Below are positions 24,173-28,634 of a stretch of 64,000 nt of DNA, one piece after another. The DNA is from Escherichia coli (GTDB taxonomy: Bacteria; Pseudomonadota; Gammaproteobacteria; Enterobacterales; Enterobacteriaceae). The notes under the pieces were generated by a model that saw nothing but the letters and a program-made list of their open reading frames with translations, was not told the DNA's origin and ran no database searches. The stretch lies in NCBI RefSeq assembly GCF_030384885.1, contig NZ_CP128613.1, one strand, 5' to 3'. Made by a program: the position numbers and the translations under genes. Positions within the stretch are counted from its first letter, which is position 1. Each line of letters opens with the position of its first letter.

Positions 24173-25186
24173 TTAAAATAGCATTTGAGTCAAATAGCCC
24201 ATCAAGATAGCCATACCTAAGATAACCGTCAGGAATGCAACTATCATCGGTATTCTGAACATTGATTTAAGTAATATCACTTCCGTCAGACTTGCGCCGG
24301 CACTGCCGATGATTAATGCCATTAATGCTCCCAGACCCATTCCTTTTGTCATCAGAACAGATGCCAGAGGGATAACCGCCTCTGCCCGGATATACAGCGG
24401 GATTCCGACAACGGCGCTCAATGGGATGGCGAAGGGATTATCTGCCCCTGCATGAGCGGCAATCCACGCTGAGGGAATAAAGCCATAAATAAAAGAGCCT
24501 ATTAATACCCCTAACAAAAGATATGGCAGTACATCTTTAAACTGTTGCAACGCATCTTTGGTGGCTAGTTTTATGGGATTAATACTTACCACAGCTTTGG
24601 TACTGCAACAGTTTACTACCGGTTTCTCAATGGCTTTAGCCGCTGGACTACAGCAACTCACTTTTATTGGCGTATATGTCGTCCCCGGCGAAGTTTTGGC
24701 TGGAGAGCAACAATTTGCTGATGAGCTTTTACTGGCAATGATATGACGTTCAAATCTCAGAGAATCCAGGATAATACTGGCAAGTACGGAGACGCCGGCG
24801 GCGATAATCGCGTACAACAAGGTAACTTTCCAACCAAAGGTCACCCACATTAACCCGACGATAATGGGATTAAGTAACGGTGAAACAAATAAAAAAGTGA
24901 GAGTCGGACCAAACCCGGCTTTCGCTGACAACAATCCACGTAGCATGGGTATTGTCGAGCAACTACAGAACGGGGTAACGGCTCCCAACAGAGCAGCCAG
25001 GAGATAGCCTCTCCCTTTTCTGGCCCCCATCATCTGCTGGATTTTATGGTCTGGCACCTTTTGTCTTATCAGGCTGACACCGGCACTAATCACCATAAAC
25101 AGCAAAGAAAGCTCGACGGCGAGAAACACAAACATCTCTGCGGCATCTTGCAGCATCGCAAGCCAACTACTCATAAGTAACCTCAT
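24173..25186 (-). CDS. ArsP-like permease (DUF318-type) with TPFCSCS motif and a Cys-rich loop
   Basis: 337-aa multi-TM ORF; motif AVTPFCSCSTIP; hydrophilic loop with three CC pairs (NCCSP, VSCCSP, VNCCS); divergent from an ArsR-family gene. Confidence 0.75.
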   Translation of the reverse strand: MRLLMSSWLAMLQDAAEMFVFLAVELSLLFMVISAGVSLIRQKVPDHKIQQMMGARKGRGYLLAALLGAVTPFCSCSTIPMLRGLLSAKAGFGPTLTFLFVSPLLNPIIVGLMWVTFGWKVTLLYAIIAAGVSVLASIILDSLRFERHIIASKSSSANCCSPAKTSPGTTYTPIKVSCCSPAAKAIEKPVVNCCSTKAVVSINPIKLATKDALQQFKDVLPYLLLGVLIGSFIYGFIPSAWIAAHAGADNPFAIPLSAVVGIPLYIRAEAVIPLASVLMTKGMGLGALMALIIGSAGASLTEVILLKSMFRIPMIVAFLTVILGMAILMGYLTQMLF

Positions 25187-25196
25187 TGAATAAAAC

Positions 25197-25256
25197 TATA
25201 TTTCCAGAATAATCGAAATGAAGTTCAGATCAAGATATTTCTGGTATTATCGAAAT
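25197..25256. promoter_or_regulatory. candidate operator: two about 23-bp direct repeats in the divergent permease / ArsR-like promoter region
   Basis: TATATTTCCAGAATAATCGAAAT (25197-25219) and GATATTTCTGGTATTATCGAAAT (25234-25256). Confidence 0.35.
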
Positions 25257-25281
25257 ATCAACCAGACAGAGGGGGTGACAC

Positions 25282-25602
25282 ATGCAATTGGAAGAGGTCG
25301 CTAAGGCACTGAAAGAGTTAGGTCATCCGACCCGTTTGTTCATATTTAAGCATCTGGTCAAAGCGGGGGAACAAGGGTTGCCGGTCGGTGAGTTGCAAAA
25401 GCAGCTTGGGATACCCGGCTCTACACTCAGTCACCATATTTCAGCACTGGTATCGGTAGGGTTGGTCAAACAAAACCGTGAGAGTCGGACGCTGATGTGT
25501 GTTTCGCAATACGCAATGCTGGAAGCGATAATTGAATTTTTATGTGAGGAGTGCTGCGTAAACAGCAAAACAGATGGCGAAGGAGCCACGAAGAACAAAT
25601 AA
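25282..25602 (+). CDS. ArsR/SmtB-family metalloregulator with C-terminal Cys cluster
   Basis: 106-aa ORF; winged-helix HTH (VGELQKQLGIPGSTLSHHISALVSVGLV); C-terminal FLCEECC. Confidence 0.8.
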   Translation: MQLEEVAKALKELGHPTRLFIFKHLVKAGEQGLPVGELQKQLGIPGSTLSHHISALVSVGLVKQNRESRTLMCVSQYAMLEAIIEFLCEECCVNSKTDGEGATKNK

Positions 25603-25622
25603 GGGGGCATATCCCCCTATAG

Positions 25623-26048
25623 TTATTTCAGGCGTTTACCCGCTTCATCAACCACTTTTTCGCCATCTTCCTTGGTGAACGCGCCTTGTTGCGCATCTGG
25701 CAGAATTTCCAGCACCACTTCTGAAGGGCGGCACAGGCGAGTTCCTAGCGGCGTCACCACAATCGGGCGATTAATCAGAATCGGGTGCTGAAGCATAAAG
25801 TCGATTAACCGATCGTCAGTAAATTTATCTTCTGCAAGGCCCAGTTCCTCATACGGCTCGACGTTTTTACGCAACAGCGCGCGTACGGAAATCCCCATAT
25901 CGGCAATGAGTTTGACCAGCTCATCGCGCGTTGGCGGTGTTTCCAGATAATAGATAATGGTCGGTTCTGTACCGCTGTTGCGGATCATCTCCAGCGTATT
26001 ACGCGACGTGCCGCAGGCCGGGTTGTGATAAATAGTAATGTTGCTCAT
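25623..26048 (-). CDS. arsC: arsenate reductase (glutaredoxin-coupled)
   Basis: 141-aa ORF, catalytic Cys in HNPACGTSR. Confidence 0.95.
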   Translation of the reverse strand: MSNITIYHNPACGTSRNTLEMIRNSGTEPTIIYYLETPPTRDELVKLIADMGISVRALLRKNVEPYEELGLAEDKFTDDRLIDFMLQHPILINRPIVVTPLGTRLCRPSEVVLEILPDAQQGAFTKEDGEKVVDEAGKRLK

Positions 26049-26060
26049 ATCAGTATCTCA

Positions 26061-27350
26061 TTACGATGTGAAAGAGAGACGAAGCGCCAGCGCGGTAAGC
26101 GTCACAAACAGCACCGGCAGGGTCATGATAATCCCTGTACGGAAGTAATATCCCCAGCTGATAGTCATATTCTTCTGCGAAAGTACGTGCAGCCAGAGCA
26201 GCGTTGCCAGGCTACCAATCGGTGTAATTTTCGGCCCCAAATCGCAGCCAATCACGTTGGCATAAACCATCGCTTCTTTGATGACACCAGATGCCGTGCT
26301 GCCATCAATGGACAACGCGCCAACCAGTACCGTCGGCATATTGTTCATAATAGAAGAGAGGAAGGCGGTGAGGAATCCGGTGCCGAGCGTCGCCGCCCAC
26401 AGGCCGTGATCCGCCAGCACGTTGAGTACGCCAGAAAGATATTCCGTTAGTCCGGCATTGCGCAGGCCGTAAACCACCAGATACATGCCGAGCGAGAAGA
26501 TGACAATCTGCCAGGGGGCACCGCGCAGCACTTTACCCGTATTAATCGCATGGCCGCGTTTAGCGACGGCAAATAATATCAGCGCGCCTACTGCCGCAAT
26601 GGCGCTTACCGGAATGCCGAGCGGTTCCAGGACGAAAAATCCCACCAGCAGAAGCAGTAAAACAACCCAGCCAGTTTTGAAGGTGGCAGGATCTTTAACC
26701 GCTTCTACGGGAGATTTAAGCAGCGCCATGTCGTAGTTCTGCGGAATATCTTTGCGGAAATAGAGATGCAACATCACCAGGGTAGCCAGTATTGCAGCGA
26801 TATCCACCGGCACCATCACCGAGGCATATTCGCGAAAACCAAGGCCAAAGAAATCTGCTGAAACGATATTCACCAGGTTAGAGACAATAAGCGGCAGACT
26901 GGCGGTATCGGCAATGAATCCGGCCGCCATAACAAACGCCAGCGTAGTGCCTTTGCTGAACCCTAAAGCCAGCAGCATGGCGATGACAATCGGCGTCAAA
27001 ATAAGCGCCGCACCATCATTGGCAAACAGGGCAGCAACGGTAGCACCGAGCAGGACAATCCAGGTAAACAGCAAGCGACCGCGCCCATTGCCCCAGCGTG
27101 AGACGTGCAGTGCCGCCCATTCAAAAAAGCCGGACTCATCCAGCAGCAGGCTGATGATAATGACGGCAATAAACGCAGCCGTCGCGTTCCAGACGATATT
27201 CCACACCACCGGAATATCGCCCGGATGGACCACGCCAGTAACTAACGCCAGTACGGCGCCCAGTGTCGCACTCCAGCCGATGCCTAAACCTTTCGGCTGC
27301 CAGATAACCAATACGATGGTCAGGACAAAGATAGCGCCCGCCAGTAACAT
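26061..27350 (-). CDS. arsB: arsenite/antimonite efflux pump
   Basis: 429-aa product from internal ATG ([10 protein letters not shown]...), 12-TM ArsB. Confidence 0.95.
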
Positions 27351-27404
27351 CATGCCTCCTGGATAAAACACATTCGAATATTCATATGTGTTTAGATAAA
27401 TTTT

Positions 27405-27758
27405 TTAACTACAAATATTCTTACTGTCTGCGGAACAATTTTGTCTGACGAGGTTACGGACAATCACCTGAACCTTTTCCTGTTCGCATCGCCAGGCCTG
27501 CTCAATAATTTTCGCCGCCCATGCTGGAATATGCGGCGATAAGCGATAATGAACCCACTTACCCTGCTTGCGGTCCAGCAATAGCCCACTTTCACGCAGT
27601 AATGCCAGATGGCGGGAGATCTTGGGCTGCGACTGATCGAGGGCAGTGCAGAGATCGCAGACGCATAACTCTCCCAGTTCGCTGAGCAGTAAAACGATGC
27701 CCAGACGGGTTTCATCGGCAAGAATTTTGAACAATTGGATGGGTAACAGAAATGACAT
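27405..27758 (-). CDS. arsR: arsenic-responsive repressor
   Basis: 117-aa ORF with ELCVCDLC As(III)-binding motif in HTH. Confidence 0.95.
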   Translation of the reverse strand: MSFLLPIQLFKILADETRLGIVLLLSELGELCVCDLCTALDQSQPKISRHLALLRESGLLLDRKQGKWVHYRLSPHIPAWAAKIIEQAWRCEQEKVQVIVRNLVRQNCSADSKNICS

Positions 27759-27910: not shown

Positions 27911-27994
27911 AAAAAAACCGACTTTGCGTCGGTTTTTTACTCTTCAGCCAGAGTTGGTGGCTCTGGCTGGAGTGAGAATGCCCACATCTAACGG
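27911..27994 (-). ncRNA. agrB: antisense sRNA AgrB (antitoxin-type RNA for dinQ); ends approximate
   Basis: Repeat unit homologous to dinQ leader; minus-strand hairpin CCGACGCAAAGTCGG followed by U7 (plus 27911-27932). Confidence 0.55.
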
Positions 27995-28144
27995 TTCAAT
28001 ACTATTAGCCAGTGGCTAACATTGCAAGCGTTAGCGATTTCTTCAGCTGGCGAAGGGACAGTTTGCTATACATGGTGGTGAAAGAGGATTGATATACTTT
28101 CATCGGGTCGCTGCCGTACCAAGCCTTGTCCGAATCCGGACGTA

Positions 28145-28229
28145 AAAAAACCGACTTCGCGTCGGTTTTTTTACTCTTCAGCCCAGAATTGGTGGCTCTG
28201 GCTGGAGTGAGATAGCCATCATCTAACAC
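28145..28229 (-). ncRNA. agrA: antisense sRNA AgrA; ends approximate
   Basis: Second copy of the repeat with hairpin CCGACGCGAAGTCGG followed by U7 on the minus strand. Confidence 0.55.
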
Positions 28230-28289
28230 ATCAATGCTAATACCATACTGAAACTATTGCAAGGACGTGCTGGTTTTATAACCCGCAAG

Positions 28290-28309
28290 TACTGTATAAT
28301 TATCCAGTT
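28290..28309 (+). promoter_or_regulatory. LexA box overlapping extended -10 (TGTATAAT) of dinQ promoter
   Basis: TACTGTATAATTATCCAGTT: CTGT-N8-CCAG, one mismatch to the LexA consensus, overlapping a perfect TATAAT. Confidence 0.6.
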
Positions 28310-28500
28310 AGCTCTGAGGCATTTTCACTCTGGTAATGCGCATAAACGCTTTCAAAGTCCTGGTCAGAAGTACGGGTGGTGCCGTTAACTGATGCTCTGG
28401 CCGGAGTGAGATTGCCCACATCTAACAATGAGGCATGCGCCGTGACAGGCAGTGGATGAGTAAGCGGATGCATTCTCACTCCATCGCATGGAGAAAACGG

Positions 28501-28584
28501 GTGATTGATAAAGCAATCATCGTTCTTGGGGCGTTAATTGCGCTGATGGAACTGATCCGCTTCCTGCTTCAGCTTCTGAACTGA
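28501..28584 (+). CDS. dinQ: LexA-regulated membrane toxin peptide DinQ (27 aa, GTG start)
   Basis: GTG-initiated frame encoding VIDKAIIVLGALIALMELIRFLLQLLN; below the 60-aa cutoff of the ORF track. Confidence 0.75.
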   Translation: MIDKAIIVLGALIALMELIRFLLQLLN

Positions 28585-28601
28585 TAGCGGAAACGTAACT
28601 A

Positions 28602-28634
28602 AGGGCAAAGAGCACACCACTCTTTGCCCTTTAA
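28602..28634. terminator. stem-loop between convergent dinQ and gor (11-bp stem AGGGCAAAGAG/CTCTTTGCCCT)
   Basis: Perfect 11-bp inverted repeat with 7-nt loop immediately downstream of both stop codons. Confidence 0.5.

Follow-up and report, generated by a model that had tools for sequence, protein, structure and literature searches.

The 64,000-nucleotide stretch of Escherichia coli DNA analysed in this study (contig NZ_CP128613.1 of the NCBI RefSeq assembly GCF_030384885.1; hereafter the window) carries, between arsC and a yhiS-like gene, a pair of divergently oriented genes encoding a 106-amino-acid (aa) ArsR/SmtB-type regulator and a cysteine-rich permease. Comparison with characterised proteins indicates that this pair is probably a self-contained module for the sensing and export of trivalent organoarsenicals, corresponding in Escherichia to the SpArsR-arsP module of Shewanella putrefaciens. 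Most studies of resistance to methylarsenite and reduced aromatic arsenicals (roxarsone, arsanilic acid and nitarsone) have dealt with Campylobacter or with bacteria from soil and the sea. In RefSeq the two genes are labelled only "permease" and "ArsR/SmtB family transcription factor", the public records examined for the pair contained generic annotation only, and literature searches by gene neighbours, RefSeq protein accessions and plasmid types (the last of these poorly targeted) returned no publication on the enterobacterial pair. An initial annotation, made without database searches, had placed a divergent regulator and permease between arsC and yhiS and had suggested that, together with arsRBC, they make a composite locus for inorganic and organic arsenic. 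Both open reading frames (ORFs) are indeed present, so this observation is confirmed, and its interpretation is supported by homology to SpArsR-arsP and to Campylobacter ArsP, with the amendment that the pair would be regulated separately from arsRBC.

The helix-turn-helix of the ArsR/SmtB type that had been assigned to the regulator was recovered with the Pfam models HTH_20 (2.9e-14) and HTH_5 (1.6e-6), and an above-threshold NCBIfam match (NF033788, 61.2 bits against a cut-off of 55) places the protein among the ArsR/SmtB winged-helix proteins. As had also been noticed, the CVC motif is absent from its 106 residues, whereas the neighbouring 117-aa canonical ArsR contains ELCVCDLC (each protein being read by itself and not in a mutual alignment). 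The C-terminus of the regulator reads ...FLCEECCVNSK, and its best relative among solved structures is AfArsR (6J05, E 2.6e-10).

The closest characterised regulator is SpArsR of S. putrefaciens 200 (Sput200_1227), which controls the promoter of the adjoining arsP gene, Sput200_1226 (PMC12124457). According to PMC13236881 and PMC11868830, SpArsR keeps only the vicinal pair Cys101/Cys102, without a third ligand, and responds to methylarsenite (MAs(III)) but not to arsenite (As(III)); the SpArsR-arsP module is credited to Chen, Nadar and Rosen 2017 in those two papers and in PMC12124457. The SpArsR coding sequence and its native 222-bp arsP promoter fragment were rebuilt from a biosensor construct printed among the supplementary data of PMC12124457; the PDF text lacked two bases, and the repaired reading frame was checked by the expected cysteine numbering and by an exact match in Shewanella genomes. 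The rebuilt protein (105 aa, with cysteines at positions 83, 101 and 102 as published) and the regulator of the window share 57.6% identity over 92 residues with no gaps. In this comparison with an MAs(III)-selective ArsR, which the initial annotation had proposed as a check, all three cysteines are kept, Cys83, Cys101 and Cys102 of SpArsR being aligned with Cys73, Cys91 and Cys92. The latter three are invariant in an alignment of nine members of the subfamily. No cysteine follows the CC pair in either protein, and the allele found in the window has Cys88 upstream of the pair in addition to the conserved Cys73. The proposed resemblance of CEECC to As(III)/MAs(III) sites holds for the CC pair, which aligns with the ligands of SpArsR and AfArsR, but not for the first cysteine, which is a lineage-specific Arg88Cys replacement; as judged from the alignment, the conserved site is the CC pair with Cys73. 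The case in which the best homologues are YraQ-type permeases with unrelated regulators, also raised at the outset, does not apply, the regulator being related to SpArsR.

The correspondence extends to the control region, in which two 22-bp imperfect palindromes are predicted to serve as operator boxes. A degenerate motif built from these two boxes gave only two matches in the 64-kb window, both of them intergenic (0.00 expected), and, with up to three mismatches allowed in Shewanella, three matches in a 16-kb Shewanella locus, all within the SpArsR-arsP intergenic region. Both boxes are conserved in five other lineages (E. fergusonii, two plasmid lineages, Citrobacter and Aeromonas), and there is no copy of the operator in the arsRBC operon. 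On these alignments, regulator, ligand residues, operator, target gene and arrangement all correspond between the window and the Shewanella module. Promoter-like hexamers were not enriched (three seen versus 2.7 expected in shuffled sequence). At its other end the regulator gene converges on arsC across a gap of 20 bp with a hairpin inside. Co-regulation of the pair with arsRBC was considered and rejected, because no operator copy lies outside the pair's own intergenic region and because the hairpin separates it from arsC; the pair is a transcription unit of its own, apart from arsRBC.

On the permease side, the Shewanella gene divergent from SpArsR encodes a 332-aa PF03773 permease that is 52% identical to that of the window (BLASTP E 9e-113). 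The window permease itself matches PF03773 (ArsP_1) over its full length (E 1.1e-52, model positions 4-293 of 294). The comparison with Campylobacter ArsP that had been suggested earlier likewise gave a full-length match to a 315-aa protein (36% identity, E 3.5e-69). The latter was taken from a metagenome contig found with a published arsP primer (PMC3774448) and is not the sequence of the assayed protein; the contig also encodes a CVC-type ArsR and an ArsC of the low-molecular-weight (LMW) phosphatase type, and the published arsC and acr3 primers match it exactly. The C. jejuni protein has MAs(III) and trivalent roxarsone as export substrates, and not As(III) (PMC6205960).

The TPFCSCS motif had been taken for a signature of ArsP permeases, and this did not stand, for it occurs across the whole PF03773 family, being conserved in almost every representative examined, down to approximately 30% identity. 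In ArsP cluster 2, as set out by Yang et al. 2015 (PMC4435449), a conserved C(S/T)C motif lies within a transmembrane (TM) segment and is preceded by tPF, and, as between the SO_0444 family and that of SaoE, the CSC core is the most strongly conserved motif (Haft preprint). Because TPFCSCS is present in almost all PF03773 representatives and CSC is shared by SO_0444 and SaoE, the motif, as far as these comparisons go, marks the superfamily and is no guide to organoarsenical specificity; it does not separate substrates. The hydrophilic loop with three CC pairs, in turn, was found as described (residues 159-160, 178-179 and 193-194, within a loop of approximately 70 residues). The median number of loop cysteines is five in the clade of the window permease versus zero in a thioredoxin-linked clade. 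In homologous loops of plasmid, Citrobacter and Shewanella relatives there are one to four CC pairs and 6 to 10 cysteines in 78-125 residues, next to a conserved TM core, and from this comparison the loop is seen to evolve via gain and loss of short Ser/Thr/Pro-rich CC repeats.

Hydropathy analysis predicted eight TM segments (4+4), with which the helices of an AlphaFold2 model agree; a 4+4 layout has been described for the family (PMC7176098). The model (predicted local distance difference test, pLDDT, 88.6; predicted template modelling score, pTM, 0.85) comprises two repeats, with helix breaks at TPFCSCS (67-70) and at PLYIRAE (261-263, both in the numbering of the 333-aa protein), and the loop (150-199) is disordered in it, with a pLDDT of about 50. 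A Foldseek search of the PDB with this confident model found no relative (best E 0.96), and a PDB sequence search with the permease found no matching chain. The PF03773 family is still without an experimental structure.

In the mechanism proposed here we infer the inducer, the substrate, the direction of transport and the role of the loop from homology. A dimer of the 106-aa repressor would bind the two palindromes of the 95-bp control region and thereby keep both its own gene and the permease gene off. Methylarsenite or a reduced aromatic arsenical (e.g. trivalent roxarsone) would bind to the vicinal thiols of Cys91-Cys92, where the dimerisation helix ends, whereupon the repressor would come off the DNA. 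The permease, with Cys74-x-Cys76 placed at a helix break in the membrane, would then export the organoarsenical, which is probably captured by the Cys-Cys-rich loop. With the separately regulated arsRBC operon alongside, the locus would cover inorganic as well as organic arsenic.

A scan of species with the regulator alignment (one genome per species) yielded at least 593 loci, and gene neighbourhoods were counted in the best 80, which belong mostly to Vibrio, Photobacterium, Shewanella, Colwellia, Psychromonas and Aeromonas. A Cys-loop permease, usually divergent, lies within 5 kb in 52 of these 80 loci. The gene for the MAs(III) oxidase, arsH (TIGR02690, 406 bits against a cut-off of 292), was found beside the regulator in five loci, and six loci have arsD-arsA. 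Since ArsH oxidises trivalent organoarsenicals (PMC6205960), its recurrence beside this type of regulator lends independent support to the proposed class of inducer. In Aeromonas tecta the pair adjoins arsD-arsA-gapdh-arsJ-arsC. The pair is thus found beside ars genes in Escherichia, Citrobacter, A. tecta and Shewanella, and alone on plasmids and in most other genera. The contigs of three metagenomic representatives were mostly short and contributed little on gene context. A further arrangement was seen in Citrobacter sp. Cu233, Enterobacter sp. Bisph1 and Hafnia paralvei, namely a regulator-arsH-sigZ-arsD-arsA string with a divergent arsRDABC operon adjoining and without the Cys-loop permease.

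Within E. coli the pair was found in 2221 of 5426 complete genomes (41%) at a query coverage of at least 80%, most copies being 95-99% identical, and in some strains it is interrupted by an insertion of IS1. The exact permease sequence is present on 893 contigs, and the interval 24064-25622 of the window (1559 bp) is matched at 100% in E. coli strain 2013C-4282. The absence of any gene between arsC and yhiS in K-12, stated in the initial annotation, was borne out by alignment with MG1655, in which 1714 bp of the window are replaced by 312 bp. In this spacer, what is left of the regulator gene's 3' end (62 bp, 77% identical, window 25509-25570) is followed by REP-like (repetitive extragenic palindromic) sequence. 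Because this remnant remains there, the pair was not simply never present in K-12; by the evidence of the alignment, K-12 lost it by deletion and the spacer is the deletion scar. In E. fergusonii the gene order is gor-dinQ-arsRBC-pair-treF. Since the pair follows arsC in that species too, comparison of the two gene orders shows its position next to arsC to predate both the E. coli/E. fergusonii split and the acid-fitness island, and hence to be ancestral in Escherichia. In Citrobacter, a 69%-identical copy is located after arsRDABC, and both together are the cargo of a lambdoid prophage, with replication genes (lambda P, DnaT-like) on one side and the lysis genes, dinI and rusA on the other.

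Plasmid records with copies at 60-80% amino-acid identity number approximately 630, mostly of Escherichia, Salmonella, Citrobacter and Klebsiella; among the 1000 matching records listed, 639 were typed as conjugative. Such diverged copies are thereby carried by several hundred plasmids of the conjugative or mobilisable kind. In the three plasmids inspected, regulator and permease occur together, without ars genes, and are flanked by IS26, IS1 or ISL3. Plasmid pZ1323CEC0005_1-4 (NZ_CP148477.1) carries, across IS1 from the pair, dinQ and an agrA/agrB-like sequence that are 75-78% identical to window positions 27911-28604, in the same order as on the chromosome but with arsRBC missing. Such a remnant of synteny suggests that the plasmid pair was captured from the chromosome of a related enterobacterium, at a locus of the form gor-dinQ-(ars)-pair. 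Among the plasmid records listed, several are from chicken or other poultry (an observation on sources, without statistics).

Several observations weigh against assigning the pair to organoarsenicals. The only NCBIfam matches of the permease are to metal exporters, namely the SO_0444 copper/zinc family (NF033936, 108.7 bits) and SaoE (NF040736, 83.4 bits), both of them sub-threshold (cut-offs of 300 and 325, respectively). The Campylobacter ArsP groups with other representatives (44-51% core identity), the clade of the window permease being the next-nearest in the sample and not the same one. Seventeen of the 80 loci, mostly from Vibrio, have sigZ (NF007215, 231.7 bits) after the regulator. 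No gene for ArsB, ArsC, ArsA or ArsD (a panel without Acr3, ArsM and ArsI) lies within 10 kb on the three plasmids or in most of the 80 loci. Finally, the side of the membrane on which the loop lies is ambiguous: by hydropathy and the positive-inside rule, a plain eight-TM model puts it opposite the very basic first loop, and an alternative topology with helices 88-113 and 281-302 as re-entrant elements places it within the cytoplasm.

The main rival explanation, which we consider unlikely, is that the permease exports soft metals or thiol-reactive compounds in general (Cu, Zn, Cd, Hg, As(III)/Sb(III) or electrophiles) and the repressor responds to thiol-reactive species at large; arsenic would then be one inducer among several, and the position beside arsRBC historical. 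Vicinal cysteine pairs are established ligands of many soft metals, and the window permease has the CSC motif and the fold in common with the SO_0444 family and that of SaoE. Nevertheless, both scores fall far under the curated cut-offs, and SO_0444 is predicted to be under a putative ZntR (MerR-type) orthologue and not under an ArsR. Use of SO_0444 or SaoE as a functional call was rejected, since the arsP product of Shewanella shows the same sub-threshold NCBIfam pattern. The sigZ neighbourhoods, some of which include a glutathione S-transferase ending in CC or a MAPEG-like gene, also favour this explanation, and in them the same sensor may stand at the centre of a regulon for thiol-reactive stress; the sigZ product of these mostly Vibrio loci has a Cys-rich tail (EECC...C..C). 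The same is true of the occurrence of the pair alone on plasmids and in most marine genera, against which stands the recurrence of ArsH and ars operons beside this type of regulator. Also against this explanation, the closest characterised regulator, SpArsR, is reported, in the sources named above, to be MAs(III)-selective and unresponsive to As(III).

Two other explanations fare far worse. It is very improbable that the pair in E. coli is a remnant, decaying or silent and without present function, that is retained solely through its linkage to arsRBC: it is absent from K-12 and from more than half of the complete E. coli genomes, and IS1 has broken it in some strains, but both ORFs are intact in the window, the exact permease and regulator sequences recur on hundreds of contigs, the TM core, cysteine ligands and operators show conservation across Escherichia, Aeromonas and Shewanella, and the pair has been retained in E. 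fergusonii and spread on plasmids. Equally hard to credit is a permease for the uptake of a nutrient containing sulfur or a metal, controlled by a BigR-type ArsR that senses redox state or persulfides, for, although sequence does not give the direction of transport and weak NCBIfam matches to BigR exist, these reach only 38.6 bits against a cut-off of 155, the cysteine positions of the regulator match those of SpArsR and AfArsR (the cysteines of BigR itself lying outside the comparison), and the characterised members of PF03773 are exporters.

Position 88 of the regulator is Arg in the copies from E. fergusonii, plasmids, Citrobacter and Aeromonas, and Gln in SpArsR. The Cys88 allele (exact regulator) was found on 538 contigs and the Arg88 allele on at least 1000, and Cys88 is missing even in a strain that is 99.2% identical across the interval. 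Cys88 is a third thiol, at i-3 and i-4 from Cys91-Cys92 in the same helix, and the spacing of Cys88/Cys91/Cys92 is comparable to that of the Cys32/34/37 site of R773 ArsR. It is conceivable, but distinctly doubtful, that Arg88Cys turns a two-coordinate, MAs(III)-selective sensor into a three-coordinate one that also answers inorganic arsenite. If it did, the replacement would be a natural, population-level case of the two-Cys to three-Cys transition proposed for the evolution of ArsR, and Cys88 would widen the induction of the permease. The locus lends itself to use as a test system, its sensor occurring naturally as an Arg88 and a Cys88 allele and K-12 providing a background without the pair.

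The features of the locus are collected in Table 1. In the orientation of K-12, the gene order is gor, dinQ, arsR, arsB, arsC, the regulator/permease pair, the yhiS-like gene, slp and dctR. The yhiS-like ORF (window 22369-23592) is intact, encodes 407 aa, has a G+C content of 33.5% and gave no NCBIfam match; yhiS is split by IS5 in K-12 and is annotated as frameshifted in the RefSeq record of the matching strain, 2013C-4282.

Table 1. Coordinates of the regulator/permease pair, its predicted sites and adjoining features in the 64,000-nucleotide window
Feature	Position	Strand	Remarks
Permease gene, ArsP-type	24173..25186	-	longest ORF, 337 aa; RefSeq start at 25174, four codons later, gives 333 aa
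Hydrophilic central loop with three CC pairs	24545..24754	-	pairs at 24707-24712, 24650-24655 and 24605-24610
TPFCSCS motif, residues 71-77 (Cys74, Cys76)	24956..24976	-	membrane-helix break; putative substrate-binding thiol pair
Divergent control region, permease/regulator	25187..25281	none	95 bp, intergenic; also conserved in copies from E. fergusonii, plasmids, Citrobacter and Aeromonas
Operator box 1, ATATTTCCAGAATAATCGAAAT	25198..25219	+	predicted; 22-bp imperfect palindrome, nearer the permease gene
Operator box 2, ATATTTCTGGTATTATCGAAAT	25235..25256	+	predicted; 21 of 22 positions match a box in the Shewanella arsP promoter fragment of the SpArsR biosensor
Regulator gene, SpArsR-type ArsR/SmtB	25282..25602	+	ORF, 106 aa; conserved Cys73, Cys91 and Cys92
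Codon 88, TGT (Cys)	25543..25545	+	CGT (Arg) in the major E. coli allele
Cys91-Cys92, putative two-thiolate site for trivalent organoarsenicals	25552..25557	+	from alignment with AfArsR Cys95/96 and SpArsR Cys101/102
GC-rich hairpin, AGGGGGCATATCCCCCT	25602..25618	none	separates the convergent regulator and arsC genes; resembles a terminator on either strand
Segment missing in K-12 MG1655	23909..25622	none	1714 bp; 312 bp in K-12 instead
arsRBC operon, canonical, inorganic arsenic	25623..27758	-	arsR 27405-27758, arsB 26061-27350, arsC 25623-26048

The pair is of significance because it is common in E. coli, has spread on plasmids and is missing from the K-12 biosensor host. The host usually employed in the organoarsenical field is the K-12 strain AW3110. 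The SpArsR biosensor was built in E. coli K-12 MG1655 with arsRBC deleted (PMC12124457). K-12 itself has deleted the pair, which amounts to a blind spot in the model host. Should the proposed function hold, the pair would be an unrecognised, mobile determinant of organoarsenical resistance in gut Enterobacteriaceae, could, wherever arsenical feed additives are in use or once were, co-select for resistance plasmids, and would bear on how gut E. coli copes with methylarsenite coming from neighbouring microbes.

Among known systems, ArsR of R773 (type 1) has its As(III) site, CVC...C (Cys32/34/37), in the DNA-binding domain, and this site is missing in the 106-aa regulator. A closer likeness is found in AfArsR of Acidithiobacillus ferrooxidans (PDB 6J05), in which the As(III) ligands Cys95-Cys96 stand where the C-terminal helix ends and align with Cys91-Cys92. 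In the type 2 site of AfArsR a downstream third ligand, Cys102, completes an S3 site for As(III), whereas the family of the window regulator is without a downstream cysteine; the allele of the window has instead the extra Cys88, three residues upstream of the CC pair. The SO_0444 family and that of SaoE have the Pfam superfamily and the CSC motif in common with the permease, but their models score it far under the cut-offs.

Campylobacter ArsP (TC 2.A.119.1.1) shares with the window permease the PF03773 domain and the 4+4 TM layout, and its Cys65 and Cys67, within TPFCSCST, correspond to Cys74 and Cys76. Its loop has one CC pair (Cys169-170) as against three in the window permease. Furthermore, the Campylobacter gene heads an arsP-arsR-arsC-acr3 operon, the CVC-type ArsR of which is only 26% identical to the regulator of the window.

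The Shewanella module lies inside a large ars/arr island with a second PF03773 permease, whereas the E. coli pair has only arsRBC as ars neighbours. This second permease adjoins a Thioredoxin_3 gene, is 29-30% identical and has no loop cysteines; one island thus holds two PF03773 paralogues that are only 30% identical. In Shewanella sp. W3-18-1, the genes directly downstream of SpArsR encode an LMW-phosphatase ArsC, a CVC-type ArsR, the second PF03773 permease, Thioredoxin_3, glyceraldehyde-3-phosphate dehydrogenase (GAPDH) and an ArsJ-like member of the major facilitator superfamily (MFS). The two modules also differ in the extra Cys88 of the window allele, which SpArsR does not have, and in the intergenic region, which spans 95 bp with two boxes in the window versus 222 bp with three boxes in Shewanella. 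They are alike in the divergent arrangement of the repressor and permease genes, in TPFCSCS and the three loop CC pairs of the permease, in near-identical predicted operator boxes (at 21 of 22 positions for one of them) and in standing, both of them, beside genes for inorganic arsenic.

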